Positions 3,544 to 62,921 of a stretch of DNA of 64,000 nucleotides are shown piece by piece. The stretch is from positions 12,590 to 76,589 of the forward strand of contig JACQUD010000074.1 of assembly GCA_016210485.1 (NCBI GenBank), written 5' to 3'. The notes under the pieces were generated by a model. The model was not told the DNA's origin. It saw nothing but the letters and a program-made list of their open reading frames with translations, and did not search any database. A program made the position numbers and the translations under genes. Position 1 is the stretch's first letter, and every line of letters starts with the position of its first letter. This stretch comes from Chloroflexota bacterium. GTDB taxonomy: Bacteria; Chloroflexota; Dehalococcoidia; JACQUD01.

Positions 3544-5274
3544 ATGAAGATGCGAACTTATTTCTGGATTATTCTTATTTTCATAGTCGTGGCGGTGTCG
3601 GCGGTTGCATGTAGCGCCAAGGCGACTCCTACGCCCACGCCGATGCCAGCGACTCCTACTCCGACCCCGGTCATAGCCACGCCCACACCACGGCCTGGGG
3701 AAACCCCCGTAGCCACGGCCATCCCTACTACGCCGACCAGCCCGGCGTTGCTTGATAAGGAGAAAGCTGTCCAAGTGTTGCTCGATAACGTGATCAAACC
3801 AGCATCATTAGACCACACAGTGATTGCCTTCACGTTAGACAACCTCTTGCCCGCGGGCACGAAGATAGCGCCGTATGCTCCCGACCCGCTTCCCTCCGGT
3901 GTTACCGCGCTGCCCTATCTGGTCCCGGAAACATTGAGCGTGCCGGTTTGGTTCTTCTGGGTGGATGACGCGCCCTTCGCCAAGTTTTCGCACCCCACTC
4001 GCTTCGTGTTCGTGGACGCCACGACTGGCGGGGTAAGGACCATGGCCCAGGGGTGGTGGCCCTACATTGACGGGCGCGAGGTGGAGCAATGGACCACGAC
4101 CCTGGAGCGCTGGAATCCTAAGAACTGGGCGTTCAACAACATACCCGCGGAAGAGTTGCCGAAATTGACTGCCAGCTCTCAGAATGGAGAACTAGCGCGT
4201 GGAGGACTTATTTTATTGCTCTTCGGATATCTGAATTGGTGGTCTACAGCCTATGCTGCTGTGCCCGCCGGCGAGGCGATGGTTGTGGTGCAAGGCTGGG
4301 CTCCCGGACATGGCACGAACGCAGACTTCACGGATGATGAGCAGGCGGCTGACAAGTTCGGTAAGGACTCCGGCACCCCGGTTTTCAAGCCGGCAGGGAA
4401 CACGCAGTGGTACATCGAGGAAGCTATAAGGAAGGCCAGAGACTCCGGGGCCAAGGACATCTTTTTCTACTGGACCGGCCACGGAGGTCGCACCGATGCC
4501 GGCGGCTCTTATCTGGATTTCCGGGGAACCCGGGTCTCTCCGGGCGACCTGGTGGAGACCTTCAAAAAATTCCCTGAGGTAAGCTTCAAGGTGGTCATAG
4601 ACAGCTGTTACAGCGGCGGCTTCGCGCCGACGTTGATTGACTCGGGGAAGGTGCTGGTATTCCTGTCGGCGGTTTCCGCTACCGAGGTCGCGTATGGTGA
4701 TTGGGACCCGCGGAAGGACCCCAATCCGGGCGATGTTGGAGGGGAGTTCTCCAGTGGACTTTGGGAGGACCTCCAGTTGATCCTCGCCTCCCCCGATTTG
4801 CAAAAGCAAATCAGAGCCGATTTCCTGGGCGTGCCTGAATTCGTCGGATGGCTTTTGGTGGCCAGCCAGTCAGCCCTGGACAAGGATGCTGCGACTCTCA
4901 CCGGTAATACTCATCCCGTGTTCAAGACTGGCGCTCCGCCGCTCATGCCCACTCCGACTCCCACAGCTACTCCTATTCCCACGCCAATCTCTACTCTAAC
5001 TCCTACTCCCACGCCCATCAACACCAGTCTGATCTTCTTCCATACCGTGCCGGGTTCATACAGCAACGTCTTCCTGGACGTCAAGGGGCCGGCGAACACT
5101 GTCGTGACCGTAACTTTGGCAGGGCCGTCAGTCGTTGCTCCCGTAACGCAGACCGGCACGATAGGCGCCGATGGCACACTTCGGGTCACGTGGACCATCT
5201 ATAGTTATGGGGTATACTCCGCCACCGGCACGGTCGGAGGACAATCTTTCACCGCTCAGGTGAACGTGAACTAG
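3544..5274 (+). CDS. Secreted or lipid-anchored caspase-fold cysteine peptidase-like protein (C13/C14-type His-Cys dyad) with PT-rich linkers
   Basis: The ORF opens at 3466, but MKMRTYFWIILIFIVVAVSAVAC (signal plus lipobox) starts at ATG 3544. The candidate catalytic dyad is FFYWTGHGG ... VVIDSCYSGGF. PT linkers lie at roughly 3640-3760 and 4940-5030, followed by a C-terminal beta-rich ~90-aa domain. Confidence 0.6.
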   Translation: MKMRTYFWIILIFIVVAVSAVACSAKATPTPTPMPATPTPTPVIATPTPRPGETPVATAIPTTPTSPALLDKEKAVQVLLDNVIKPASLDHTVIAFTLDNLLPAGTKIAPYAPDPLPSGVTALPYLVPETLSVPVWFFWVDDAPFAKFSHPTRFVFVDATTGGVRTMAQGWWPYIDGREVEQWTTTLERWNPKNWAFNNIPAEELPKLTASSQNGELARGGLILLLFGYLNWWSTAYAAVPAGEAMVVVQGWAPGHGTNADFTDDEQAADKFGKDSGTPVFKPAGNTQWYIEEAIRKARDSGAKDIFFYWTGHGGRTDAGGSYLDFRGTRVSPGDLVETFKKFPEVSFKVVIDSCYSGGFAPTLIDSGKVLVFLSAVSATEVAYGDWDPRKDPNPGDVGGEFSSGLWEDLQLILASPDLQKQIRADFLGVPEFVGWLLVASQSALDKDAATLTGNTHPVFKTGAPPLMPTPTPTATPIPTPISTLTPTPTPINTSLIFFHTVPGSYSNVFLDVKGPANTVVTVTLAGPSVVAPVTQTGTIGADGTLRVTWTIYSYGVYSATGTVGGQSFTAQVNVN

Positions 5275-5434
5275 GGGAGGCTGGTGCGCTGGTCCGCAAT
5301 GGCACGTGTCTTATTCTGCACGCCGCATCCTCGTTCCTTTGCTCCGAGCGCGGGGCCCGGTTCGAGACCGCTACAGAATCGCTGCCAATACAATAAACAA
5401 TAGCTCGCGGGACGAAATGGCGCTTCCGGTTATC

Positions 5435-6196
5435 TCAGATGACGCTGTCCATAGTCAATCCCAATTTCTCGTAAACCTCTGGCAAGTCCCACATCGTGAT
5501 TATGCCCAGCAGCTGCTCATCCTTCCTGCCATCCTGCGTGATGAGTATGGCCCCGAGCTTCTTGCCCTTCTTCTCATAGCTTCGCACGATGGAAACGACG
5601 TCGAACGGTGTCTTGTTCCTGCTCATAAAAACACAGTTGTCCGTGTCTTCAGCAAAAGGCAGCACCTTCTCAACTGGCACGTCCAGGTGAACGCCACCAG
5701 CATGACAATTGGCCAGCCAGTGGACTATGGCGTTGGTAGTCAGCAGAGCGCAGAAATCCCTGCCGGAGTAAACGGGGAACTGAGAGAAAGCGTACCTGTT
5801 GACATACTCCAGGGCGGTGGTCACGGGGTCCGTTGCGGATAATATGACCACCTTCCTTTGGAACATCGGGATGATCTTTGGGGCATCCACCAAGAAGGTT
5901 AGGACTCGCTCGATCTCTTCAATCACCTGGTTATTCGGCTCGGCGATGACGTGCCCGTCCGTGCTGTCGTGTATGATGGCGTTTCTCAGCTCAGAGAGGT
6001 CTGCGAGGGCATCGCGGACGCGCAAAACCAAGTGGTTGGACTCACTGGCCTCCCGGACCATGCGCATGAACGGGATCTCTCTGTCCACGTTCAGCACTTT
6101 TCTCAGGTGCTTATCTATCCTGTTGAAGGCACCCAGGAAACGCTCTGAGTTCGGGATCCTGTCAGAGTTGCCTGGAGTCTCTCCCCTTTGCATCAT
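5435..6196 (-). CDS. HEPN-like (R-x4-H) N-terminal domain fused to a tandem CBS pair
   Basis: The N-terminal ~100 aa contain LSELRNAIIHD, i.e. R-N-x3-H, the HEPN Rx4-6H motif with a polar residue after R. The C-terminal ~140 aa look like two CBS repeats (VVILSATDPVTTALEYVNRYAFSQFPVY ... GAILITQDGRKDEQLLGIITMWDL). Local G+C is lower: 52% on the one 60-nt line I counted. Confidence 0.55.
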   Translation of the reverse strand: MMQRGETPGNSDRIPNSERFLGAFNRIDKHLRKVLNVDREIPFMRMVREASESNHLVLRVRDALADLSELRNAIIHDSTDGHVIAEPNNQVIEEIERVLTFLVDAPKIIPMFQRKVVILSATDPVTTALEYVNRYAFSQFPVYSGRDFCALLTTNAIVHWLANCHAGGVHLDVPVEKVLPFAEDTDNCVFMSRNKTPFDVVSIVRSYEKKGKKLGAILITQDGRKDEQLLGIITMWDLPEVYEKLGLTMDSVI

Positions 6197-6442
6197 CGTC
6201 TCCTAGAAAACGGAGCTGGAATTACAGTAGGTAGAACCTTTGAACTGGCACCTTCAGTCTCTCGATTTAGCTCCGCCTCTGGTCAAGAATGATTGTAGCA
6301 GGAGAGGATTGCGGGCGCAACGGAGTGACAACATCAGCCTCATCGACATTTGTCTAGCCAGCCCCTGAACGAACTGGACAGCTCGCTCCGAACTCGCAAA
6401 CCACCTTATTCGTATGCTAAACTGGCCTGGAAAGGAGTGGCA

Positions 6443-7252
6443 ATGAGTTTCCCCCTGGCAGTCGATGGACGGCCCGCTCTGGAAGTGGCCCAGGAGGTGG
6501 CCCGGCAGGCCGGCCGCGTGATACTGAGACGCTTCCCAGGCCGAAAACAAATCTCCCACAAGGGCCGAGCCAACCTGGTTACCGATACCGATATGCAAGC
6601 CGAGAAAACTATCCTATCCCTTCTGAGACGACACTTTCCAAGCCATGCTATTCTCTCCGAGGAGACGGGCCAAGCCGCCGAGGGTTCGGAGTATCAGTGG
6701 GTGGTGGACCCTCTGGACGGCACCCGCAACTTCGCCTGGGGCATTCCCTTCTTCGCCACGTGCCTGGCCCTGGCCCGAGGAAATGAGGTTGTGCTGGGAG
6801 TGGTCTACGACCCGGTGCGACGGGAGCTTTTCTGGGCAGAGCGGGGGAAGGGGGCAGCCGTCAACGGCAAGCCTATGGCATTGTCGTCCCGAGCTAGCCT
6901 CGACCAGGCGGTGCTGGGCACTGACTCCGGATACGACGACGATAAGGCCAAGAGAGCCTTCCAGTTGGTAACCGACCTCTGGCCTGGAGTCCAGGCTGTC
7001 CGGCTGATGGGCTCGGCGGCCCTGGGGCTAACCTATGTGGCCTGCGGTCGCCTCGACCTCTATTTCCACCATACCCTCCAGCCCTGGGACCTGGCGGCGT
7101 CCCTACTGATGATAGAGGAGGCCGGGGGAAAGGTAACTCAGAAGGACGGCAGCCCGGCCAGCTATCGCAGCCCCGGCATCATCGCCGCCAACCCAGCCCT
7201 CCACGCCGCCTTCCTGGAGCGGGTACGAAACCACCCCTGGCAGCAGGCCTAG
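6443..7252 (+). CDS. Inositol monophosphatase family protein (SuhB/IMPase-like)
   Basis: Motifs WVVDPLDGTRNF, SEE(T)G and WDLAA are present. RBS aaaggag lies 5 nt upstream of ATG 6443. The ORF opens earlier, at 6350, without an RBS. Confidence 0.85.
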   Translation: MSFPLAVDGRPALEVAQEVARQAGRVILRRFPGRKQISHKGRANLVTDTDMQAEKTILSLLRRHFPSHAILSEETGQAAEGSEYQWVVDPLDGTRNFAWGIPFFATCLALARGNEVVLGVVYDPVRRELFWAERGKGAAVNGKPMALSSRASLDQAVLGTDSGYDDDKAKRAFQLVTDLWPGVQAVRLMGSAALGLTYVACGRLDLYFHHTLQPWDLAASLLMIEEAGGKVTQKDGSPASYRSPGIIAANPALHAAFLERVRNHPWQQA

Positions 7253-49231: not shown

Positions 49232-50341
49232 CTACGAAGAGAAGGCGCCCTTGATCTTGCCAAGAAGGCCCTTGGACTCCTTGGGCAGCGACGCCGGGCC
49301 CAGGGAACGACCCAGCTCCCGGAAGAGCCGCCTCTGCTCAACAGTCAGAGAATCAGGGGTCACCACCATTACCCTGACCACCTGGTCGCCGCGCCCGGCG
49401 CCCTCGCTATAGGGCACCCCCTTGCCTCTGAGGATGAAGGCCTCGCCATTTTGGGTGCCGGCGGGGATTCTCATGCTGACCGAGCCTTCCAAAGTGGGGA
49501 CCTCTATCTCATCCCCCAGGGCGGCCTGGGCGAAGTTAATAGGAATCTCGCAAAGGATATCGTGGTCCTGGCGCTGGAATAAGGGGTGAGGCTTAACATC
49601 CAAGGCAATGAGAAGGTTCCCCGCAGGCCCGCCGCGGAGCCCTGCATCCCCCTCGTTTCTGAGCAACATCTGGTTCCCCTGGTTAACACCAGGGGGTATT
49701 TTTACGGCTATCTTGCGGTGTCGCCTCTCCCTCCCTGCTCCCTGGCACGCAGAGCAAGGTGAGACGATGACTTTGCCCTCCCCCTGGCAGCGGTCGCATA
49801 TGGCCACATGAACGAACTGGCCAAAGATACTCTGCTGAGAGCGTCGCACCTCGCCACTGCCACGACAGGCGGGGCACTGGGCCGGCTGGCTACCTGGGGC
49901 ACTGCCCAAGCCGCGACACTCAGAGCAAACCTCCGTTCGAATGATACTCAGAGGCTTTTGACAGCCGAAGACGGCCTCTTCGAAGGTCAGGGCTAGCCGG
50001 TAGCGAAGGTCGGCGCCCCGCTGGGGCGCTCGACGAGTTGACGTGGCCCCTCCGAAGAAGGCATCGAATATATCACCGAAGCCGCCGAAGTCGAAACCCG
50101 AGAAGGGGCGGTCCCCCAGGGCCCCGGCGTGGCCGAAGCGGTCATAGGCCGCTCTCTTCTCCTGGTCGGAGAGAACCTGATAGGCCTCGTTTATCTCCTT
50201 GAAGCGGGCTTCGGCTTCATCCTCATCGTTGCGGTCGGGGTGGTATTTGAAGGCCAGCTTACGGAAGGCCTTCTTGATCTCCTCCTCAGAGGCACTGCGA
50301 GGCACGCCCAAGACCTCATAATAGTCTCTCTTGGTCGCCAT
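49232..50341 (-). CDS. dnaJ: Molecular chaperone DnaJ (type I)
   Basis: [13 protein letters not shown]...[19 protein letters not shown], a G/F region and four CxxCxGxG zinc-finger repeats. ATG at 50341 is preferred over the ORF opening at 50374. No dnaK or grpE is adjacent. Confidence 0.93.
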
Positions 50342-50490
50342 AGATACAATCGCCCTATCCTTTCCAACTCCCATTATAGAGCCTGCCCCGAAGGAAGTGA
50401 AGCGGCATAGGATGGCGAAGCCAAGGATGAGCCTCTCTTGAGTGAGAGAGCGGCAAAATATACTTTTTAAACAGTCTCCGCATCTTAAAC

Positions 50491-53971: not shown

Positions 53972-54178
53972 ATGGCTGTAGAAAAATCCATTGGTTCATC
54001 CAGCCTGGCCGAGGTGGTGGATCGCATCTTGGACAAGGGCGTAGTAGTGGACGCCTGGGTCCGCGCCAGCCTGGTGGGCATCGAGATCCTGGCCGTCGAG
54101 GCCAGGGTCGTAGTGGCCAGCGTGGACACCTTTTTAAAGTACGCCGAGGCCATTGGACTAACGGCAGCTGCGGCCTAA
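53972..54178 (+). CDS. gvpA: Gas vesicle structural protein GvpA
   Basis: RBS aaaggagg. The 68-aa sequence [55 protein letters not shown] is near-identical to the canonical GvpA core. Confidence 0.97.
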
Positions 54179-54347
54179 CCCCCATAGCAAGCCGGGCGCC
54201 GGGGTGGCCATGCCGAAAGACGATAGCCCAGCCGGGCTCCTCTTATCAGGCCGTTCCAGGTCGGATAAAAGTCTGAAAAGATGCTGGCAAAGTCGCCTGG
54301 GGATGGCCACCCCGGAGGCAAGACCAAAACAATAATGGAGGAAACCG

Positions 54348-54887
54348 ATGACATTAGCAGAAGAAATGCGCAGCCTGGCCCAGGACATCCTGGGCTCTTT
54401 GGAGGGCAGGGCCACAGCCATTGCGGAAATCAAGCGGGAGACAAGACACCTCCGGTCCCAGACCAGGGCTGGGCTGGGGACACTTCATGAGGCACAGGAA
54501 ACCCTGCGCCGGGAGCTCGGAGAGAGCCTTGCGCAGAGCCGCTCCCACCTTCAGTCCGAGGTAGGCGCTACGCTCCAGGCCTTTGGGCGAGAGCAAAAAA
54601 CAGTGCGCCAGGACATAGCCGGCGCTCGCAACGAGTGGAGAAAGCTGAGCGTGGCCGCGCACTCCAGTAAGGGAAGGCCCGCACACCAGGGAACCGCATC
54701 CTCCCACGGGATGGTTGACCTGGGCGACCGGGCCTTCCAATACCTGACCGACCGCCCCAAGGGCACCAAAATGGCGGAGCTAGAAAAGGCGCTGGGCATT
54801 CCCCGCATCCAGATGGCCAGGGTCTTGAAAAGCCTGGTAGAGGCCAACAAGGTTAAGAAACAGGACCTCCTCTACTTCGCCGCATAA
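54348..54887 (+). CDS. Hypothetical gvp-cluster protein: N-terminal ~100-aa helical/coiled-coil region plus C-terminal winged-helix-like domain
   Basis: RBS ggagga is 6 nt upstream. The N-terminus is rich in R/E/Q/L heptads. The C-terminus FQYLTDRPKGTKMAELEKALGIPRIQMARVLKSLVEANKVKK looks like a wHTH. It occupies the position directly after gvpA. Confidence 0.6.
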   Translation: MTLAEEMRSLAQDILGSLEGRATAIAEIKRETRHLRSQTRAGLGTLHEAQETLRRELGESLAQSRSHLQSEVGATLQAFGREQKTVRQDIAGARNEWRKLSVAAHSSKGRPAHQGTASSHGMVDLGDRAFQYLTDRPKGTKMAELEKALGIPRIQMARVLKSLVEANKVKKQDLLYFAA

Positions 54888-54928
54888 AGCCCTGAACCGA
54901 ATCTCAAATATCTAGGGAGGTAGCAACC

Positions 54929-55843
54929 GTGATGGTGGAAGAGGCAACCACGCTGCTGGAGCCCCACCCACTGCCCAACTTCGTGGAGACGCCCTTTGTG
55001 GCCTCTATCGTAGAGCGGGCCTTGACCTACGTCGCTGCCGGCTTCCCCATCCACTTCCGGGGGGCCTCAGGCACCGGCAAGACCACCCTGGCCCTCCACG
55101 TAGCTAACCGGCTGGGGCGTCCCGTGGTGCTCATCCACGGCGACGAAGAGTTCACCACCTCCGACCTGGTGGGCGGCGAACACGGCTACCGAACCAGAAA
55201 GGTGATAGACAACTTCATCCACTCGGTGCTCAAGACCGAGGAGGACATGAGCCGGCGATGGGTGGACAACCGCCTCACTGTGGCCTGCAAATACGGCCTC
55301 ACCCTCATCTACGACGAGTTCACCCGCTCCCGCCCCGAGGCCAACAACGCGCTGCTCGCCGTCCTTCAGGAGAGAGTCCTGGACCTGCCTGCGGACAGAG
55401 ACGGTGAGGGCTACCTCAGCGTCCATCCCAACTTCGTTGCCATCTTCACCAGCAACCCCGAGGAATATGCCGGCGTCTTCCGCAGCCAGGACGCCCTCCG
55501 CGACCGCATGGTGACCCTGGACCTGGACGGCTTCGACAATGAGACGGAGATAGCCATCACCCAGGCCAAGTCCGGGCTGGGGCGGAGGGAGACGGAGAGG
55601 ATAGTGCGTCTGGTTCAAGCCTTGAGGGAATCGGAGACATGCGATTTCCCTCCCACCATCCGCGGCTGCATCATGGTGGCCAGGACGCTGAAGGCTCTGA
55701 ATGGTGCTGCCTCCTCCCAGGATGGCCTATTCCGACAAATATGCCTTGACGTCCTGGGCTCGGAGGCCGCCAGAGTGGGGAGCCGGGCCCAGGTATCCAG
55801 AGTCAGAGAAAAGCTATGCCACCTCCTGGAACACTACTCTTGA
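54929..55843 (+). CDS. gvpN: Gas vesicle protein GvpN (AAA+ ATPase, CbbQ/NirQ/NorQ/GvpN family)
   Basis: Walker A GASGTGKTT, Walker B LIYDEF, and overall length and context typical of GvpN. Confidence 0.93.
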   Translation: MMVEEATTLLEPHPLPNFVETPFVASIVERALTYVAAGFPIHFRGASGTGKTTLALHVANRLGRPVVLIHGDEEFTTSDLVGGEHGYRTRKVIDNFIHSVLKTEEDMSRRWVDNRLTVACKYGLTLIYDEFTRSRPEANNALLAVLQERVLDLPADRDGEGYLSVHPNFVAIFTSNPEEYAGVFRSQDALRDRMVTLDLDGFDNETEIAITQAKSGLGRRETERIVRLVQALRESETCDFPPTIRGCIMVARTLKALNGAASSQDGLFRQICLDVLGSEAARVGSRAQVSRVREKLCHLLEHYS

Positions 55844-55853
55844 GAGGACGAAT

Positions 55854-56198
55854 ATGATAGGCGCAAGCAGAGTGAAGACTTTGGGCGATATAAGGACTGC
55901 CCTAGGCATCCGCCTTCGCTCCAAGCCAGCCCAGCAGGAAGACTCCTATCGAGACGTCTATCTGCTAGGCATAGAGAAGCTAAGGATGAGGGGAGAGATG
56001 AGGCGGCTGGAGAGGCAGCGGGGAAGAGTGGAGAAACGCCTGGCTGAGATCCGCTCCAAGCTGGAGAGGCTGGCCCAGATGGCGCAGGAGGATGCCGAGC
56101 ATGAGGCTCCATCCCACCCTACGCCCCCAGGAAAACCTTCGGCGGATGCCGGGCAACCCGACCGGAGGCCATGGAAAAGGATGCCTATCCAATACTAA
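55854..56198 (+). CDS. Hypothetical gvp-cluster coiled-coil protein (114 aa)
   Basis: RBS gagagga is 5 nt before ATG 55854. LGIEKLRMRGEMRRLERQRGRVEKRLAEIRSKLERLAQMAQE is followed by a P-rich tail. It holds the positional slot between gvpN and gvpF. Confidence 0.55.
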   Translation: MIGASRVKTLGDIRTALGIRLRSKPAQQEDSYRDVYLLGIEKLRMRGEMRRLERQRGRVEKRLAEIRSKLERLAQMAQEDAEHEAPSHPTPPGKPSADAGQPDRRPWKRMPIQY

Positions 56199-56427
56199 GA
56201 AAGGACTAATTCGAGTATGGAGAGCAGTCCCCATTATCCAGAGGGACTTCAGAGCTGGAAGCAATGTAACCTGCCCTGGCAACATGGGGAGAAGCCCAGA
56301 CAACTTGCCGCAAAGGATACAAGGGAATTGAACAGGGCTGGCATTCGCAACATCTCCCGGCACCTCATGGCTCGGGAGAGAGTCAGATTGCGGAAGAGTA
56401 AACCAGAAGCAAGAGCTGGAGTGAGTT

Positions 56428-57489
56428 ATGGAAGGCAATTATATCTACGGCATCGTCGCCAGCCATAATGGGGCCGGCCTGACCCACCTGGATATCCCTG
56501 GCATCGATGGGCAGGGGCTGACCTTCCTCTGCGCCCGCCGGGACATCGCTTGCCTGGCCAGCCACTACTCCGGCCCCGAGTTCAGCTCCCTGCCTCGGGA
56601 ACAGGTGCTCCACTGCCTGCTCTCCCACCAGGCGGTGATGGAGCACGCCATGAATGAAGGCCCCGTGCTCCCGGCCAAGTTTGGGACGGTGCTCTCCGCA
56701 TCCAGCGAGCTATATCAACTCCTGGAACAAGGCCGCCCGCTGTTCCAGGAAGCCCTGAACCGCCTCCAGTACGTGGTTGAGATGGAGGTGGTCGCTACCT
56801 GGGACCTCCAGCAGGTGCTCCGGGAGATAGGGTCCCAGAGCGACATCGTCGCCGCCAGGGAAACCATAGCCCGGGAGCCCGGGGCAGGCCTGGAGGCGCG
56901 CCTCCGCCTGGGGCAGATGGTCAAGGCCTCTTTGGACCGGCGCCGGACCCAGTTCTGCGAAGTCATAGTAGGCTGCCTCCGGCCCCTGGCCGTCGACCTC
57001 CAGCCCAACGCCCTGGCCTCCGACGAGATGGTGATGAACGTCGCCTTCCTTATAGAGAGGGTGCGGCAGGCTGAGTTGGAGAGCTGTCTGAGACAACTGG
57101 ATAGCCATTTCCAGGACCAGCTTAAATTCCGGGGCATAGGCCCTCTCCCCCCTTACAGCTTCGCTACCGTGGAGGTCAGCAAGCCCGACGGAGAGAAATT
57201 GACAGCGGCCCGGCATCTCCTGGGCCTGGTAGAGACATGCTCCGAGGCAGAGGTGCGAAGAGCCTACCGACATCTGGCCGCCCAGTCTCACCCGGATCGC
57301 CAGACCAGCAGCGAGCCGCCCCAGGTAGAACTCACCCAGCTGCGCCGGGCGGCAGACCTGCTCATCGCACAGTGCCGAGGACGGATGGGAGATGACAGTT
57401 TCCTCATCGCTATAAAGCGCCGCCGGCTGGATGAAGTGCCCTTCCTCCGTTTCGCTGAGACTGAGATGGCTGGAGCCCCCCATGGCTGA
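56428..57489 (+). CDS. GvpF/GvpL family protein with a C-terminal J-domain extension (HPD motif)
   Basis: Residues 1-250 form a GvpF/L core (NYIYGIV...LP.KFGTV...GPLPPYSF). Residues ~258-316, AARHLLGLVETCSEAEVRRAYRHLAAQSHPDRQ...LTQLRRAADLL, match J-domain helices II and III, with HPD encoded at 57289-57297. Confidence 0.85.
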   Translation: MEGNYIYGIVASHNGAGLTHLDIPGIDGQGLTFLCARRDIACLASHYSGPEFSSLPREQVLHCLLSHQAVMEHAMNEGPVLPAKFGTVLSASSELYQLLEQGRPLFQEALNRLQYVVEMEVVATWDLQQVLREIGSQSDIVAARETIAREPGAGLEARLRLGQMVKASLDRRRTQFCEVIVGCLRPLAVDLQPNALASDEMVMNVAFLIERVRQAELESCLRQLDSHFQDQLKFRGIGPLPPYSFATVEVSKPDGEKLTAARHLLGLVETCSEAEVRRAYRHLAAQSHPDRQTSSEPPQVELTQLRRAADLLIAQCRGRMGDDSFLIAIKRRRLDEVPFLRFAETEMAGAPHG

Positions 57490-58258
57490 AGTTGGCAAAT
57501 ACCTCTACTGCATTATCCCCTGCTCGGTGGAACGGACTTTCGCCATCGCGCCCATAGATGACGGAGTCGGCGGGGTGAGCACAATCTGCCATGAAGGCCT
57601 GGCCGCCGTGGTCAGCGACGCCACCTCCAGGCACTATGAGAGCACCCGCAGCAACCTGATGGCCCACGAGAAAGTCCTGGAGGCAGTGATGACGGAGTTC
57701 ACCCTCCTCCCCGTGCGGTTCGGCACCGTGGCCGATGCTGCTACCCCTGCTCAGGACATCCACAAACTCCTGAGCCACAAGTCCGAGGAGTTCCGCGAGC
57801 TTCTAAGGGGGATGGAGGGAACGACAGAGCTGGGCCTCAAAGCCTTCTGGCGGAATGAGAAAGCCATCTTCCCCGAGCTCCTGGCCGAAAACCCGGAGAT
57901 AAAGCGCCTGATAGACTCCCTATCTGCCAGGTCCCGTCAGGCCAGCGCTTCGAGTCCGGAGCGCCTCCACCTGGGGCAGATGGTCAAGGAAGCCCTGGAG
58001 CTCAAGAGGGCCAGAGAGGCAGCGCAGATCCTGTCACCCCTGCGCCCCCTGGCCCAGCGACTTCGAGAGAACTTCCCGCTGGTGGACAGGATGATAGCCA
58101 ACGCTGCCTTTCTGGTGGAAAGGGAGCGTGAGCCTGAGTTCGACATAGCGGTCAGCACCCTGGATAGACAGCTAGGCCAGCGGGTAGCCTTCAAATATGT
58201 GGGGCCGGTGCCACCCTATAATTTCGTGAATATCGTTGTGAACTGGGAAGAGCTTTAG
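57482..58258 (+). CDS. gvpF: Gas vesicle protein GvpF/GvpL family
   Basis: ATG at 57482 overlaps the upstream stop. GKYLYCIIP......I....G.....I...GLAAVVSD, LLPVRFGTV and C-terminal YVGPVPPYNF. Confidence 0.9.
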   Translation: MAEVGKYLYCIIPCSVERTFAIAPIDDGVGGVSTICHEGLAAVVSDATSRHYESTRSNLMAHEKVLEAVMTEFTLLPVRFGTVADAATPAQDIHKLLSHKSEEFRELLRGMEGTTELGLKAFWRNEKAIFPELLAENPEIKRLIDSLSARSRQASASSPERLHLGQMVKEALELKRAREAAQILSPLRPLAQRLRENFPLVDRMIANAAFLVEREREPEFDIAVSTLDRQLGQRVAFKYVGPVPPYNFVNIVVNWEEL

Positions 58259-58266
58259 GTGAAGAG

Positions 58267-58524
58267 ATGAGCCTGCTTCTGAGTTTGCTGACCCTGCCCG
58301 CCCTGGGGCCTATAAGGGGGACCGGCTGGCTGGCCAAGAGAATCGCCGAGGTTGCCTGGGCCGAGATGAAGGACGAAGGGTGGGCCAGGGGCGAGCTCCA
58401 GGAACTTCAGATGCGCCTCGACCTGAGGGAGATAACCGAAGGCGAGTATGCGGAAAAGGAGGCGGCTCTCCTGGAGCAGATAAGGGCCGCTCGGGAAGCC
58501 GAGGCCTTGCCCAGCCAGCGTTGA
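58267..58524 (+). CDS. gvpG: Gas vesicle protein GvpG
   Basis: The 85-aa sequence LPALGPIRGTGWLAKRIAEVAWAEM.DE......L.ELQMRLDLREITEGEYAEKEAALLEQI matches the GvpG family pattern. Confidence 0.88.
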   Translation: MSLLLSLLTLPALGPIRGTGWLAKRIAEVAWAEMKDEGWARGELQELQMRLDLREITEGEYAEKEAALLEQIRAAREAEALPSQR

Positions 58525-58554
58525 ATACACATCACATAAGGAAGGAGGACCGAA

Positions 58555-58809
58555 ATGGTGGTCCAAGAGCTAGCCGAGCGAGCTAAGAGTCAACTGAAAG
58601 ACATCACAGGTCTAATGCCCTCGGCCGTCACCGAGGCCTTCAAGGACGACCTGGGATGGCACATAACCCTGGAGGCACTGGAGATGGCCAGGGTCCCCTC
58701 TACCGCCGACGTCCTGGGCATCTACGAGGCCATCCTGGACGAAGAGGGCAAGCTGCTCAGATTCCAGCGAAAGCGAGCTCGCCTCCGCTGCCAGACGACA
58801 GAAGAATAA
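58555..58809 (+). CDS. gvpO: Gas vesicle protein GvpO
   Basis: A...L.DITG......T.......GW.ITLEALEMARVPSTADVLGIYEAILDEEGKLLRFQRKRA matches the actinomycete-type GvpO pattern (GW.V.VEV.E..RIP...D.LA.YEV.LD..G.L..Y.R). Confidence 0.82.
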   Translation: MVVQELAERAKSQLKDITGLMPSAVTEAFKDDLGWHITLEALEMARVPSTADVLGIYEAILDEEGKLLRFQRKRARLRCQTTEE

Positions 58810-58825
58810 ACTAAGGAGGGAACTC

Positions 58826-59125
58826 ATGAACTCACTAGCGCCCAGAGATACCCTCTCCCTGGCCGACGTTATCGACCGAGTCCTGGACAAGGGCCTGGTC
58901 ATCAACGCCGACATCGCCGTCTCCCTGGCCGGCGTCGAGCTTCTGGGCATCAAGATACGAGCCACCCTGGCCTCCTTCGAGACGGCGGCCCGATACGGCC
59001 TAGAGTTCCCCTCCGGCACCCGGCTGGACACCCCCGCCTGGAGGTCAATCATGGCAGAGGCCGACCCCATCCCCTCCGGCAACGGACACCGCCAGGGAGA
59101 GCTCCCCATCATTGAGGCCAGATGA
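58826..59125 (+). CDS. gvpJ: Gas vesicle protein GvpJ (GvpA/J/M family)
   Basis: LSLADVIDRVLDKGLVINADIAVSLAGVELLGIKIRATLASFETAARYGL. Confidence 0.88.
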   Translation: MNSLAPRDTLSLADVIDRVLDKGLVINADIAVSLAGVELLGIKIRATLASFETAARYGLEFPSGTRLDTPAWRSIMAEADPIPSGNGHRQGELPIIEAR

Positions 59126-59128
59126 GCC

Positions 59129-59449
59129 GTGCCTCTCCGAATCGACGAGGATGGCCTGAAACAGGGGGTGCTGGGGCTAGTTCTGGCCCTGGTGGAGATC
59201 ATCAGGGATGCCCTTAAGCACCAGGCCCTGAGACGGGTGGAGGGCGGGAGCCTGAGCCCACAGGAGATGGAAAGACTGGGGCGGGCGCTGGAGGACCTGG
59301 ACGCCGCCATCGAGGAGATCCAGCAGGAACTGGGGCTCAACGAGGCTGTAAGGTCACTTCGGGAGGGCCTGGACGAGCTGGTGGACGATGCCCTGGAGAG
59401 GATAATAAACCCGGAGAGATGGCAGGGTGCAGCTGAGGCGAGGAATTGA
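59129..59449 (+). CDS. gvpK: Gas vesicle protein GvpK
   Basis: GTG start. GLKQGVLGLVLALVEIIRDALKHQALRRVEGGSLSPQEMERLGRAL..LD..IEEIQQELGL. Confidence 0.88.
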   Translation: MPLRIDEDGLKQGVLGLVLALVEIIRDALKHQALRRVEGGSLSPQEMERLGRALEDLDAAIEEIQQELGLNEAVRSLREGLDELVDDALERIINPERWQGAAEARN

Positions 59450-59450
59450 T

Positions 59451-60224
59451 ATGAGAGAGGGGCGCTACCTGTATTGTATCGTCCCCGAGAGGGAGCAGAT
59501 GAGCCTGGAGAGCATCGGACTGGGAGGTAAAAAGACCTACACCATCCCCTATGAAGACCTGGCGGCCGTGGTCCACCGCTGCCCGGCTCAACCCTACGCC
59601 TCCCAGGAACATGAGATGGCGATAGCCTGGGTTACGGCCCATCAAGAGGTAGTGGAGGCTGCCTGGCGGAGATGGCATCCTATCCTGCCCCTGAGCTTCA
59701 ATAACATCATTGTAGGGGATACAGAGAAAGAAGCGGAGCAAAAGGTGAGGGGATGGCTGGAACATGAATACGAAAGGCTCAAGAGGAAGATGGAGAAGAT
59801 GACGGGTAAGGACGAGTTCGGTGTCCAGGTCTTCTGGCATCCCAGAGCCATTGCCCAGAGCTTGAGCCAGAGTAGCCCGGAGCTCCGCCAGATGGCTGAG
59901 GAGATTAAGGCCGCACCCAGGGGCCGAGCCTACCTGCTCCGGCAGCGGCTGGGAACATTGTTGAAGGAGCAAATGGAGGCCTGGGCCAGCCAGTGCTGCC
60001 AAGACATATATAGCAATATCCGCCAGCACATCGACGATATCTTTTGGGAAAAAACAAAGAAGAGCGAGGAGGATATGAAGATGCTCCTGAGCCTCTCCTG
60101 CCTGGTCTCCCGAGGGAAGGAAAAGGGATTGGGGGAGGAGTTGGAGACCATAAGCCGGAGGGAGGGCTTTTCAGTGCGCTTCACAGGGCCCTGGCCCCCC
60201 TATAGCTTTGTGGGAAATCCCTGA
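59451..60224 (+). CDS. Gas vesicle protein GvpL/GvpF family (third paralog)
   Basis: ATG at 59451 lies 1 nt after the gvpK stop. GRYLYCIVP....................Y.DLAAVVH ... ILPLSF, C-terminal FTGPWPPYSF. Confidence 0.88.
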   Translation: MREGRYLYCIVPEREQMSLESIGLGGKKTYTIPYEDLAAVVHRCPAQPYASQEHEMAIAWVTAHQEVVEAAWRRWHPILPLSFNNIIVGDTEKEAEQKVRGWLEHEYERLKRKMEKMTGKDEFGVQVFWHPRAIAQSLSQSSPELRQMAEEIKAAPRGRAYLLRQRLGTLLKEQMEAWASQCCQDIYSNIRQHIDDIFWEKTKKSEEDMKMLLSLSCLVSRGKEKGLGEELETISRREGFSVRFTGPWPPYSFVGNP

Positions 60225-60235
60225 GAGGAGACTTT

Positions 60236-60523
60236 ATGGAGCCAAGCCGCCATCCCCAGGCCACGCTGCAGGACCTGCTGAACCGAGCCTTGGACAGGGG
60301 GTTAGTGATAAACGCTGACCTCGTCATCTACCTGGCCGGGGTCCCCCTCCTGGGGGTCAACCTGAGAGCCGCCATAGCGGGCATGGAGACCATGCTCCAG
60401 TATGGCCTTATGAAGGAGTGGGACGAACAGCTCCGTGCCAGCGCGCAAAACAAGCTGGAGGCCGCCTCACTGCTTCCGGCCGCCCTCCCCAGCCGAGAAT
60501 GCCTGGAGGCGAAAGATGTCTAG
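60236..60523 (+). CDS. GvpA/J/S-family small gas vesicle protein (second minor paralog)
   Basis: ATLQDLLNRALDRGLVINADLVIYLAGVPLLGVNLRAAIAGMETMLQYGL is a GvpA-family core with a divergent C-terminal tail. Confidence 0.85.
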   Translation: MEPSRHPQATLQDLLNRALDRGLVINADLVIYLAGVPLLGVNLRAAIAGMETMLQYGLMKEWDEQLRASAQNKLEAASLLPAALPSRECLEAKDV

Positions 60524-62024
60524 AGCCGTCGGGATAGACCTGGGGACCACCTACACAGTGCTGGCCGTCATCGAGGGTGACCAGCCCAGGGTCATCCCCA
60601 ATGCCGAAGGGGAGCTGCTGACCCCTTCGGTAGTAACCTTCACCCAGGACGAGCAACCTTTGGTGGGACTGCCGGCCAAGCTTCAGGCCGCGGCTCACCA
60701 CCAATGGGCCGTAGCCTCCATAAAAAGGCATATGGGCTCCGGCCACAGGGTACAGGTGGGGGAGAGGGAGCACACCCCTGAGGAGATATCTGGCTTCATC
60801 CTGAGAAAGGTTAAGACCGATGCCGAAGCCTACCTGGGGGAAAGCATAGATAAAGCTGTTATCACCGTGCCCGCCTATTTCAACGACCGACAGCGCCAGG
60901 CTACTCGGCAGGCCGGCTTCCTGGCTGGCCTGCAGGTGCTCCGCATCATCAATGAGCCCACCGCCGCCGCCCTGGCCTATGGCCTGGACCGAGAGGATAT
61001 TCACACCGTTCTGGTCTGGGACCTGGGCGGCGGCACCTTCGATGTATCTATCCTGGAGATAGAGGCAGGAATCCTGGAGGTGAGGGCTGTCAGCGGGGAC
61101 CCTTGGCTGGGGGGAGACGACTACGACCAAAGACTGGCGGACTACCTGGCGGGGCTTTACCCGGAGCCCTGGGGGAAGGCCTTTCGACAGGATAGAAGCC
61201 TCCGGCAAAGGCTTCAGGAGGCCGCGGAGAAGGCTAAAATCGAGCTTTCCACTCAGCCCTGGGCTCAGGTCCGCTTGCCCACAGCCCTACCAGAGCGAGA
61301 GGAGACCGCCTCTTTCAAAACCACCGTTATCCGGGAGCAGTTTCAGGCGCTGACCCGAGACCTGCTGGAGAGGATGATACCCCCTACGGAACAGGCCCTG
61401 GCCGATGCCGAGCTGAAACCTGGCGATATCCACAGGGTGCTCCTGGTGGGAGGAGCCACCAGGATGCCCGCCGTCCAGGAGCTGGCCCGGGAGCTCCTGG
61501 GACAGGAGCCTTACCGGGGCCTCAACCCCGACGAGGCGGTGGCCCTGGGAGCCGCCCTCCAGGCCGGGATGCTCCTGGGTCAAATGAAGAAGACCATCCT
61601 CCTGGACGTGCTCCCTCTCTCCCTGGGGGTGGAAACCCAGGGAGGCCTCTTCGCCAGAGTCCTCCGCCGGAACATCCACCTGCCCGCGGCGGAGTCCCGC
61701 ATCTTCACCACCGCTGCCGACAACCAGACCTCCATGGACATCCATGTCCTTCAAGGGGAACAGGAGCGGGCACAGGACAACTTATCCCTGGGTCAATTCC
61801 AACTCCAGGACATCCCACCCCTATCTAAGGGCGTGCCCAGGGTCGAAGTAACCTTCGAGGCAGATGTGAACGGCATCCTGCATGTCTCCGCCCGAGACCT
61901 GCTCTCGGAGAGCGAGGCTAAGGCGGAGATGATTGCCCGCCCTGATCACTACCCAGAGAAACCCCCTCTATCTCTAGCTACTTCCCAGGGCCGCGCCTTC
62001 GAAACTCCCAGGATTTCAGGATGA
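60516..62024 (+). CDS. Hsp70/DnaK-family ATPase lacking the C-terminal helical lid (502 aa)
   Basis: ATG at 60516 overlaps the upstream gvp gene by 8 nt. VGIDLGTTYTVLAV, ITVPAYFND.QRQAT..AG.LAGL.VLRIINEPTAAALAYG, DLGGGTFDVSIL, VLLVGGATRMPAVQE, and linker plus beta-SBD ILLDVLPLSLGVET.GG.F. It ends ~40 aa after the beta-sandwich, with no alpha-lid and no EEVD. Confidence 0.9.
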   Translation: MSRAVGIDLGTTYTVLAVIEGDQPRVIPNAEGELLTPSVVTFTQDEQPLVGLPAKLQAAAHHQWAVASIKRHMGSGHRVQVGEREHTPEEISGFILRKVKTDAEAYLGESIDKAVITVPAYFNDRQRQATRQAGFLAGLQVLRIINEPTAAALAYGLDREDIHTVLVWDLGGGTFDVSILEIEAGILEVRAVSGDPWLGGDDYDQRLADYLAGLYPEPWGKAFRQDRSLRQRLQEAAEKAKIELSTQPWAQVRLPTALPEREETASFKTTVIREQFQALTRDLLERMIPPTEQALADAELKPGDIHRVLLVGGATRMPAVQELARELLGQEPYRGLNPDEAVALGAALQAGMLLGQMKKTILLDVLPLSLGVETQGGLFARVLRRNIHLPAAESRIFTTAADNQTSMDIHVLQGEQERAQDNLSLGQFQLQDIPPLSKGVPRVEVTFEADVNGILHVSARDLLSESEAKAEMIARPDHYPEKPPLSLATSQGRAFETPRISG

Positions 62025-62030
62025 GCCGAT

Positions 62031-62060
62031 TTGACAGCAGGAGGCAACCATCTCTAGAAT
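62031..62060 (+). promoter_or_regulatory. Promoter candidate for the GreA-like gene
   Basis: TTGACA at 62031-62036, an 18-nt spacer, then TAGAAT at 62055-62060. This suggests the gene is transcribed separately from the gvp operon. Confidence 0.5.
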
Positions 62061-62099
62061 AGAATAGTTTTCAACAGGATCATCCAGGAAAAGGAAGTT

Positions 62100-62921
62100 T
62101 TGCTGCCATCTGCGGACATCACCCTGGCCCAGACCTCGGCCCGCTATCTGGCTGGCCTACCGCCGGAGAAGCGGGCTGCGGAGCAGGGAGAGCTAAACAA
62201 ATTCATCCGCTGGTGCGGGAGTGACCGCCCCGTCGCCGGCCTCAGTGTCCACAATGTAGCCAGCTACGCCGAGACGGCCTCCGCCTGGGGAGGCGACGTT
62301 ACCCAAAGGCTGGAGCCGGTTCGCTCTTTCCTCCTCTTCCTTAAGCAGCAGAAGATAAGCTCTGTTAATCTAGCCACCCACTTGAAATGGAGGAAAGGCA
62401 CAGTTCGGGCCTCACCTCCTCCCAGAAAAAAGAGGGAACTTTCGGAGACTGAGGCCTCGGCTCTGAGCCTGGAGGGCCGCACCCAGATAGAGACGGATCT
62501 GGCAGCGCTCCGAGCGGAGAGGCCTCAACTGGCCGAGGAAATCCGCCATGCCGCGGCGGACAAGGACTTCCGAGAGAACTCCCCCCTGGATGCGGCCAAA
62601 GAGCGCCAGGCCCATGTGGAGGGACGTATTCGAAACTTGGAGACCCTCCTTCACCTCCACACCATGGCGGAGGCCACGGGCGACAAGAAAGTGACGGCCA
62701 AGGCCAACCTGGGCTCCCGATTGGTGCTCCATGACCTGACCCGAGACCAGGAGATGCGCTGCACCCTGGTATCCCCTGCCGAGGCCTCCCCCCGGGAGGG
62801 AAAGGTCTCCTCCACATCGCCCTTGGGTAAGGCGCTCTTGGATAAAGGCCCCGGCGAGGTAGTGGAAGTGACGGCCCCTGCAGGCAAGTTCCACTATCTC
62901 ATCGAGGCCGTGGAGGGATGA
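62100..62921 (+). CDS. GreA/GreB-family transcript-cleavage-factor homolog with a ~120-aa N-terminal extension
   Basis: TTG start. The C-terminal ~150 aa read L.L.G....E..L..LR.ERP...E.I..A..DKDFRENSPLDAAKERQ...EGRI..LE..L plus a GreA C-terminal domain (G.KVSS.SPLGKALL.KGPGEVVEV..P.G). The N-terminal domain resembles an integrase SAM-like core-binding fold; that similarity is weak. Confidence 0.7.
   Translation: MLPSADITLAQTSARYLAGLPPEKRAAEQGELNKFIRWCGSDRPVAGLSVHNVASYAETASAWGGDVTQRLEPVRSFLLFLKQQKISSVNLATHLKWRKGTVRASPPPRKKRELSETEASALSLEGRTQIETDLAALRAERPQLAEEIRHAAADKDFRENSPLDAAKERQAHVEGRIRNLETLLHLHTMAEATGDKKVTAKANLGSRLVLHDLTRDQEMRCTLVSPAEASPREGKVSSTSPLGKALLDKGPGEVVEVTAPAGKFHYLIEAVEG

Follow-up and report, generated by a model that had tools for sequence, protein, structure and literature searches.

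Several described systems couple a J-domain protein to the handling of one client or one assembly. J-domains dock on ATP-bound Hsp70, where their HPD motif triggers ATP hydrolysis and Hsp70 traps the client that is presented to it (PMC10410713). In the HscB-HscA-IscU system, a class C J-protein recognizes a single pathway-specific client through its non-J part, a specialized DnaK paralogue is encoded in the operon of the client, and there is no dedicated nucleotide-exchange factor. Auxilin and GAK bind a protein lattice or assembly intermediate, and through the J-domain at their C-terminus they recruit Hsc70 for its remodelling. For gas vesicles, GvpF and GvpL of characterized clusters have been proposed to act as chaperones or scaffolds of GvpA-family proteins: GvpF binds GvpA and was proposed to be a transient chaperone for the hydrophobic part of GvpA2, and GvpL interacts with GvpJ, GvpK and GvpS and was proposed to be a scaffold (PMC11445434). 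The present work concerns a stretch of 64,000 nucleotides (nt) from a Chloroflexota bacterium (contig JACQUD010000074.1, positions 12,590 to 76,589), referred to as the window, which according to its open reading frames (ORFs) and Pfam matches contains a complete gas-vesicle (gvp) gene cluster on the + strand at 53972-62024. One of the three gvpF/L paralogues of this cluster encodes a GvpF/L core fused to a C-terminal J-domain (the fusion), and the last gene encodes an Hsp70. The preferred reading, to which a probability of about 0.7 is assigned, is that the fusion, as a class C J-protein with a specific client, links the handling of GvpA-family subunits to the ATPase cycle of an Hsp70.

By analogy, this arrangement appears closest in logic to HscB/HscA-IscU, since it would likewise combine a class C J-protein, the non-J part of which recognizes one client, with a DnaK paralogue in the operon of this client and no dedicated exchange factor. 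However, the client module of the fusion has the GvpF/L fold instead of that of the HscB C-domain, and its J-domain is located at the C-terminus. Unlike HscA, the gvp-encoded Hsp70 is missing in about half of the clusters, and NCBIfam places the window copy nearest to DnaK and not to HscA. Whereas IscU is a cofactor-releasing scaffold, the proposed gvp client is a self-assembling shell protein. There is also a resemblance to auxilin/Hsc70, with its C-terminal J-domain on a protein that binds the assembly, but auxilin and GAK are eukaryotic and unrelated to the fusion in sequence outside the J-domain, and the fusion may act in assembly or in disassembly.

The ORF of the fusion is free of stops and encodes 353 amino acids (aa), with a GGAG sequence 9 nt upstream of its ATG. 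Beyond the end of the core, ...FRGIGPLPPYSF (residues 234-245), the protein continues for 108 residues, whereas the second (...VPPYNFVNIVVNWEEL) and third (...WPPYSFVGNP) paralogues stop 12 and 6 aa past the PPY motif, in agreement with the C-terminal extension that a first-pass annotation of the window had reported. Residues 260-315 read AARHLLGLVETCSEAEVRRAYRHLAAQSHPDRQ-TSSEPPQVE-LTQLRRAADLLIAQ, which is the J-domain sequence claimed there, with H288-P289-D290 as the HPD tripeptide. Pfam detects both domains at the places that had been predicted, namely GvpL_GvpF (PF06386) at residues 4-246 (177.5 bits, E 6e-52) and DnaJ (PF00226) at residues 264-312, with 29.5 bits and an E value of 8e-7 for the full protein and 32.3 bits and 1e-7 for the tail alone. 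In a sequence search of PDB chains, the core matched the GvpF structures 6L5D and 4QSG, and residues 263-314 matched the J-domain of E. coli DnaJ (1BQZ, 1XBL and 5NRO_B; E 3e-5 to 7e-5).

An AlphaFold2 model based on 66 homologues (mean predicted local distance difference test score 85.3) predicts helix I at residues 255-264, helix II at 273-286, the HPD loop and helix III at 298-317. The J-domain is predicted to be flanked by the strands 246-251 and 326-331, which would extend the last sheet of the core, and residues 335-353 are modelled as a disordered, low-confidence end. When the model was compared with the PDB using Foldseek, the top matches for the core were again 6L5D and 4QSG (E 4e-14 to about 1e-13), and the predicted tail superposed on more than 30 J-domain structures with a probability of 1.0 and a root-mean-square deviation of about 2 Å (1.5-3) over ~57 residues. 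One of these is 5NRO_B, a J-domain bound to DnaK, for which the template-modelling score was 0.73 on the target. In the basic helix II, residues R277, R278, Y280, R281 and H282 align with R22, K23, Y25, K26 and R27 of DnaJ, and L302 aligns with F47. The probability of an artefact, with unrelated sequence joined to a GvpF/L gene by a frameshift or mis-assembly or with an HPD that occurs by chance, is negligible. An identical 353-aa protein is present in NCBI ('MAG: GvpL/GvpF family gas vesicle protein [Chloroflexi bacterium]', MAG standing for metagenome-assembled genome), and the identical gene was found in the independent Logan assembly of run SRR12113390, which excludes a frameshift or chimera, as does conservation in the more than 300 homologues with the same GvpF/L plus J architecture; in addition, the downstream gene starts by the expected 8-nt overlap.

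Clear differences emerge between the fusion and the known members of its two parent families. With GvpF (4QSG of Microcystis and 6L5D of Anabaena) and GvpL it shares the core fold, the Pfam family and the operon context (gvpN ... gvpF/L, gvpG ...), but both structures align with residues 63-248 only, extend at most ~7 residues beyond and possess neither the J-domain nor the segment that follows it. The NCBIfam scores of the fusion are 76.5 bits for GvpF, as compared to a cut-off of 350, and 48.2 bits for GvpL, with a cut-off of 200; judged by these scores, its core is a third, divergent GvpF/L paralogue and an equivalog of neither GvpF nor GvpL. Like canonical DnaJ, the fusion has J-domain helices I-III, HPD and a basic helix II, but it lacks the G/F region, the zinc finger, the C-terminal client-binding domains and a detectable helix IV, which by architecture makes it a class C J-domain protein. 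A canonical DnaJ for comparison is present in the window, as had been noted in the first-pass annotation, and is encoded on the minus strand. The conserved segment after the J-domain, residues 325-347, has the family consensus LLINIRR..EEVQHL.FAE and no J-domain counterpart; its start is modelled as the beta strand 326-331.

Conservation was assessed in the 120 best homologues, which are 43-54% identical to the fusion except for the identical entry (P0001). Both Pfam domains, as precomputed for GvpL_GvpF and PF00226, are present in 115 of them, H, P and D are each retained in 117-118, and the tail, including the post-J segment, is as conserved as the core. Among 303 fusion tails aligned to E. 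coli DnaJ for residue counts, 291 (96%) retain HPD, 288 the equivalent of R/K22 and 277 that of Y25, and 264 have F at the position of F47. These data show that purifying selection maintains, as part of a separate GvpF/L paralogue, a J-domain with residues needed only for the activation of Hsp70. With the tail as query, up to 400 proteins were retrieved at E <= 1e-3 from a library of 1.84 billion representatives of 50% identity clusters, and among the 150 matches listed nearly all are 340-370 aa long and match at ~residues 235-320, which corresponds to the fusion architecture.

A scan of one genome per species with the tail alignment confirmed at least 171 candidate genomes, and the locus counts given here refer to the best 80 loci. 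These span more than 15 phyla and include Chloroflexota (several classes), Planctomycetota, Actinomycetota, Desulfobacterota, Elusimicrobiota, NC10, Rokubacteria, Armatimonadota, Latescibacteria, Omnitrophota, Chlamydiota, Nitrospiraceae, Ignavibacteriales, Xanthobacteraceae and others. Most carriers are known only from metagenome assemblies; the cultured Oscillochloris sp. ZM17-4 also belongs to the set. The fusion gene was found within a gvp cluster at every locus for which flanks were recovered (~70 of 80), the remaining ~10 being short contigs with the fusion alone or the fusion and one gvpF/L gene. Of 79 long-tailed GvpF/L ORFs, 78 match the core of the window fusion best and not the two short paralogues, to which, in turn, the short GvpF/L ORFs correspond. 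By these matches the fusion is an orthogroup of its own, which is consistent with a single old fusion event.

Another example from a cultured strain is that of Octadecabacter arcticus 238, a gas-vacuolate Roseobacter. Its plasmid pOA238_160 encodes a 360-aa fusion (WP_015497776.1; NC_020910.1 68343-69425, equivalent to L086:11791-12873 in the locus set) with Pfam matches to GvpL_GvpF and DnaJ (28.0 bits) and an intact HPD (...YHRLARKSHPD...). The corresponding genome paper names the gvp genes without mention of a J-domain (PMC3646047). The gvp cluster of Desulfobacterium vacuolatum makes vesicles in E. coli (PMC10344784); a homologue search that started from a Desulfobacteraceae fusion retrieved metagenome-derived proteins only, and a link to the D. 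vacuolatum cluster is putative.

The Hsp70 paralogue closes the operon, as the first-pass annotation had stated. Its first 8 nt are shared with the end of the preceding gvpA-like gene, and directly after its stop, before a GreA-like gene, there is a sigma-70-like promoter close to consensus (TTGACA-18-TAGAAT, 62031-62060), indicating that the Hsp70 gene is the last of the operon. Several gene pairs of the cluster overlap by 8 nt, the fusion gene and the gvpF/L gene that follows it among them, and overlaps of this kind are typically seen with translational coupling. The window Hsp70 scores 580.8 bits with Pfam HSP70 and, like canonical DnaK, consists of a DnaK-type nucleotide-binding domain (NBD), a linker and the beta part of the substrate-binding domain (SBD-beta). 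It is colinear with residues 1-466 of Geobacillus DnaK and ends ~35 residues past SBD-beta, so that, unlike in canonical DnaK, the alpha-helical lid and the C-terminal tail are missing. A lid encoded in another frame was considered and ruled out by the space of 76 nt between the Hsp70 stop and the GreA-like gene with its own promoter-like site. As compared to E. coli DnaK, the protein retains the catalytic residues D8, K70, E171, D194, T199 and D201, a hydrophobic linker ending in D393, and R167, N170, T173, E206, E217 and V218, which we take to be the J-domain contact residues. From their sequences, the cluster Hsp70s look competent and J-responsive.

The 120 closest relatives of the window Hsp70 are 60-69% identical to it and mostly 581 aa long, and they possess the lid but, in contrast to canonical DnaK, not the C-terminal tail. 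At least 16 of them come from contigs equal in length to that of a fusion homologue and are thus probably located on the same contigs. Three further relatives that were chosen without such a link, a JGI metagenome protein and proteins of 'Candidatus Hakubella thermalkaliphila' and of an Actinomycetota MAG, all turned out to lie at gvp cluster ends, and a fusion gene (GvpL_GvpF plus DnaJ) is present in two of these clusters. Within the locus set, a DnaK-like gene is present in the cluster at 22 of 80 loci, from Chloroflexota, Planctomycetota and Desulfobacterota/Syntrophales, and the co-occurrence with Hsp70 that the first-pass annotation had proposed to score is frequent. At least two types can be distinguished. 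Type 1, to which the window and the Desulfobacterota copies belong, lacks the ~24-aa N-terminal insert of E. coli DnaK. Type 2 has a DnaK-like insert and is encoded either between gvpN and the fusion gene, directly upstream of the latter, in Anaerolineales or at the cluster end in Chloroflexia. The existence of two types suggests more than one recruitment of Hsp70. Raw similarity was discarded as an argument for a single Hsp70 clade, given that the scores to the window Hsp70 (444-657) overlap with that of Geobacillus DnaK (539) and similarity alone is therefore no proof of monophyly; the gvp-linked Hsp70 family is supported by gene context and not by similarity.

Further chaperone-like genes were observed in related clusters. 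In many of them (L001, L004, L005, L011, L015, L034, L039, L056, L057, L084 and L085) the cluster Hsp70 is followed immediately by a gene whose product has an alpha-crystallin (Hsp20)-like C-terminal domain, as judged by eye, and a PH/GRAM-like or helix-turn-helix N-terminus; the window has the GreA-like gene in its place. A tandem ArsA/Get3-like ATPase is encoded in the Hsp70-containing gvp clusters L083, L084 and L085, and a CDC48-like double AAA+ protein in L083 and L084 (positions of these genes are 5071-7083 and 13180-15324 in L083, 1-1202 and 4133-6091 in L084, and 790-3096 in L085). Taken together with Hsp70, the ArsA/Get3-like and CDC48-like genes indicate that such clusters encode a whole chaperone and remodelling set.

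According to the preferred reading, the GvpF/L-fold core would be the client-binding or scaffold module and, by analogy with GvpF and GvpL elsewhere, would contact GvpA-family subunits at their hydrophobic face or bind to the nucleation complex of GvpJ/K/S. The J-domain, with its HPD loop and basic helix II, would engage ATP-bound Hsp70 at the interface of NBD, linker and SBD-beta, and the HPD loop would trigger ATP hydrolysis, causing Hsp70 to clamp the subunit presented by the core. Aggregation-prone Gvp subunits would in this way be kept assembly-competent and be passed on or freed from the assembly factor, and the energy of ATP would be fed into vesicle nucleation or growth. The likeliest partner in the window would be the operon's own lidless DnaK paralogue; in clusters without an Hsp70 the housekeeping DnaK may take this part. 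Nucleotide exchange would be provided by the GrpE of the cell or may not be needed.

The same components could serve an auxilin-like recycling, in which the fusion, located on intermediates or on the vesicle surface, recruits Hsp70 so that assembly factors such as GvpF/L and GvpG, or shell protein that is mis-assembled or collapsed, are stripped off for reuse. Such a role is considered unlikely. It would fit the predicted position of the J-domain between two strands that extend the last sheet of the core, which suggests a fixed presentation on a larger complex, the presence of CDC48-like AAA+, ArsA/Get3-like ATPase and Hsp20 proteins in related clusters, and the report that the binding of GvpF to GvpA is transient and displaced by GvpG (PMC11445434). 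However, the sequence data do not separate stripping from delivery, and genes for CDC48, ArsA and Hsp20 are absent from the window cluster.

Several observations weigh against a coupling of the fusion to Hsp70, and some of them concern the J-domain itself. It clears the Pfam gathering cut-off of PF00226 (27.8 bits) by a narrow margin with a match to profile positions 5-53 of 63, and helix IV was not matched by Pfam, the model continuing past helix III with a loop and a beta strand. In the DnaK-DnaJ complex, helix IV of the J-domain is not known to lie at the DnaK interface. Furthermore, six Chloroflexi loci (L011, L013, L015, L033, L050 and L062) have lost HPD, which is replaced for example by LQRT or EQRT (...LAAGLQRT...), and have kept the J-like tail with helices II and III and the post-J strand; four of the six also retain Hsp70. 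The tail must also have a role that is independent of HPD. This sub-lineage resembles the HPD-less Pam16/Tim16 in that it keeps residues of the J-fold but not HPD. It is conceivable, though improbable, that the tail in general is such a J-like structural or interaction module with a main role apart from the stimulation of the Hsp70 ATPase, for which the whole tails of these six loci and the conserved segment 325-347, foreign to J-domains, could be invoked. The retention of HPD in nearly all fusions across phyla, along with Y25, R/K22 and F47, and the recurrent physical linkage with Hsp70 genes argue otherwise. Unlike HPD-less J-like proteins, the window protein has HPD, and there is no partner J-protein in the HPD-less clusters, since a J-domain hidden Markov model detected no J-domain beyond the fusions over the loci, these clusters included. 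The equivalent of R167, which presumably pairs with the Asp of HPD, is changed in only two cluster Hsp70s, both from HPD-less clusters (G in L011 and K in L050). This difference (2 of 4 versus 0 of 15; hand-computed Fisher p ~0.035, uncorrected for relatedness) is a weak hint that the HPD and R167 surfaces decay together.

Other unfavourable observations relate to the Hsp70 partner. Of 15 complete-looking fusion clusters, eight contain an Hsp70 gene and seven do not, and the plasmid-borne gvp cluster of Octadecabacter has an Hsp20 gene and no Hsp70, indicating that an operon-encoded Hsp70 is not obligatory. The published gvp clusters of Halobacterium and B. megaterium list neither an Hsp70 nor a J-domain gene, so that the module is accessory and not universal. 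The NCBIfam DnaK scores of the window Hsp70 are below the cut-off (626.9 versus 648 for NF001413 and 614 versus 822 for TIGR02350), and this lidless protein could be decaying. No GrpE was detected in Pfam and NCBIfam scans of the window genes. Finally, both the binding of GvpA-family proteins by the core and the stimulation of the ATPase are steps that we infer. The statement of the first-pass annotation that the fusion physically links an assembly factor to a chaperone cycle was supported as regards the physical link, whereas the functional link to the Hsp70 cycle is inferred from sequence data and about half of the complete clusters are devoid of Hsp70.

These observations bring into play a further possibility, namely that the J-domain serves mainly the housekeeping DnaK/GrpE system and that the cluster Hsp70 is an optional add-on, represented in the window by a decaying, lidless copy. 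Its probability is considered low. Apart from the clusters without Hsp70 and the truncated, sub-cut-off window protein, it can draw on the normal class A DnaJ of the window genome and on the repeated loss of the lid in the family: in the window Hsp70, P0157, P0238, P0233, P0192 and L001, the point at which the lid breaks off differs and the short tails that remain are unrelated, which points to repeated independent truncation, some cases possibly being assembly fragments. Such decay is at odds with the retention of all catalytic and J-interface residues in the window Hsp70, with its translational coupling to the preceding gvp gene and with a ~581-aa Hsp70 family that is tied to gvp clusters across phyla and would not be maintained without a role. 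In addition, all cluster Hsp70s examined have another residue, in most cases Q, in place of the substrate-arch residue M404 of canonical DnaK, suggesting specialization rather than decay.

The features of the cluster are compiled in the table below. Two of its genes, those for the 179-aa and the 114-aa protein, occupy the same positions in many related clusters. In the otherwise tightly packed operon there is a non-coding gap of 229 nt upstream of the fusion gene (56199-56427), in which neither an Rfam family nor a promoter consensus was found, and Rfam and promoter/terminator scans of the cluster revealed no RNA element at the locus. The GreA/GreB-like protein encoded downstream (273 aa; promoter and gene at 62031-62921) has an extra N-terminal domain of ~120 aa without family match.

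Table 1. Coordinates of the gvp cluster features and of the housekeeping DnaJ in the window.
Feature	Position	Strand	Basis or remark
gvpA, major shell protein, first gene of the cluster	53972-54178	+	Pfam Gas_vesicle
Conserved 179-aa gene after gvpA, coiled coil and weak winged-helix match	54348-54887	+	no family assignment
gvpN, AAA+ ATPase	54929-55843	+	Pfam AAA_5
Conserved gene for a 114-aa coiled-coil protein, between gvpN and the fusion gene	55854-56198	+	no family match
gvpF/L-J fusion gene, 353 aa	56428-57489	+	Pfam, independent assembly
GvpL_GvpF core, residues 4-246	56437-57165	+	Pfam 177.5 bits, Foldseek
Predicted J-domain, residues 255-317	57190-57378	+	Pfam, PDB sequence matches, AlphaFold2 and Foldseek
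HPD tripeptide, H288-P289-D290	57289-57297	+	translation
Conserved post-J segment, residues 325-347	57400-57468	+	family alignment, model
Second gvpF/L paralogue, GvpF-like, short C-terminus	57482-58258	+	Pfam, NCBIfam
gvpG	58267-58524	+	Pfam
gvpO	58555-58809	+	Pfam
gvpJ-like, GvpA family	58826-59125	+	Pfam
gvpK	59129-59449	+	Pfam
Third gvpF/L paralogue, GvpL-like, short C-terminus; alternative ATG 59451	59427-60224	+	Pfam, NCBIfam
gvpA-family gene (S/M-like), directly upstream of Hsp70	60236-60523	+	Pfam
Hsp70, DnaK paralogue, 502 aa; likely ATG 60516	60516-62024	+	Pfam, NCBIfam, alignment
Housekeeping class A DnaJ, outside the cluster, for comparison only	49232-50374	-	likely start MATKRDYY... 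at 50341

The fusion is real, widespread and undescribed in the searchable literature, and it is a recombination of two known modules. Gas-vesicle reviews, interaction papers and a census of 280,000 J-protein sequences mention neither a J-domain in a Gvp protein nor an Hsp70 in a gvp cluster, and no published mention of either was found in a search of the literature outside subscription-only papers. The novelty that had been supposed for the fusion therefore holds for published descriptions, but not for the databases, where the fusion is abundant with both Pfam domains precomputed. There, fusions are annotated as 'GvpL/GvpF family', and one JGI entry reads 'DnaJ-domain-containing protein 1'.

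These results touch on the question of how the extremely hydrophobic GvpA stays soluble and enters the growing gas vesicle. That GvpF is a GvpA chaperone is a recent proposal from interaction data (PMC11445434), and the J-domain conserved in a GvpF/L paralogue, in many cases together with an Hsp70 from the cluster, provides a concrete and testable ATP-driven mechanism for this idea. A new class of client-specific J-proteins and a gvp-linked DnaK lineage are thereby added to bacterial chaperone biology. The wider proposition, that gas-vesicle biogenesis is Hsp70-driven and ATP-consuming in a broad set of bacteria, with the fusion as a J-protein specific for shell subunits, the gvp-linked DnaK, with its altered substrate arch and dispensable lid, as motor and frequently Hsp20, ArsA-like and CDC48-like partners, is tentative and has somewhat less than even odds. 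If this proposition is true, it would provide a second bacterial example, after HscA/HscB, of an Hsp70 system devoted to a single assembly pathway. Clusters of gvp genes have found use as acoustic reporter genes, and assembly in E. coli fails for many of them (PMC10344784, PMC12848028). In this context, a built-in chaperone module may matter for the engineering of gas-vesicle reporters and, again if the wider proposition is true, supplying it could benefit gvp clusters that do not assemble in a heterologous host.

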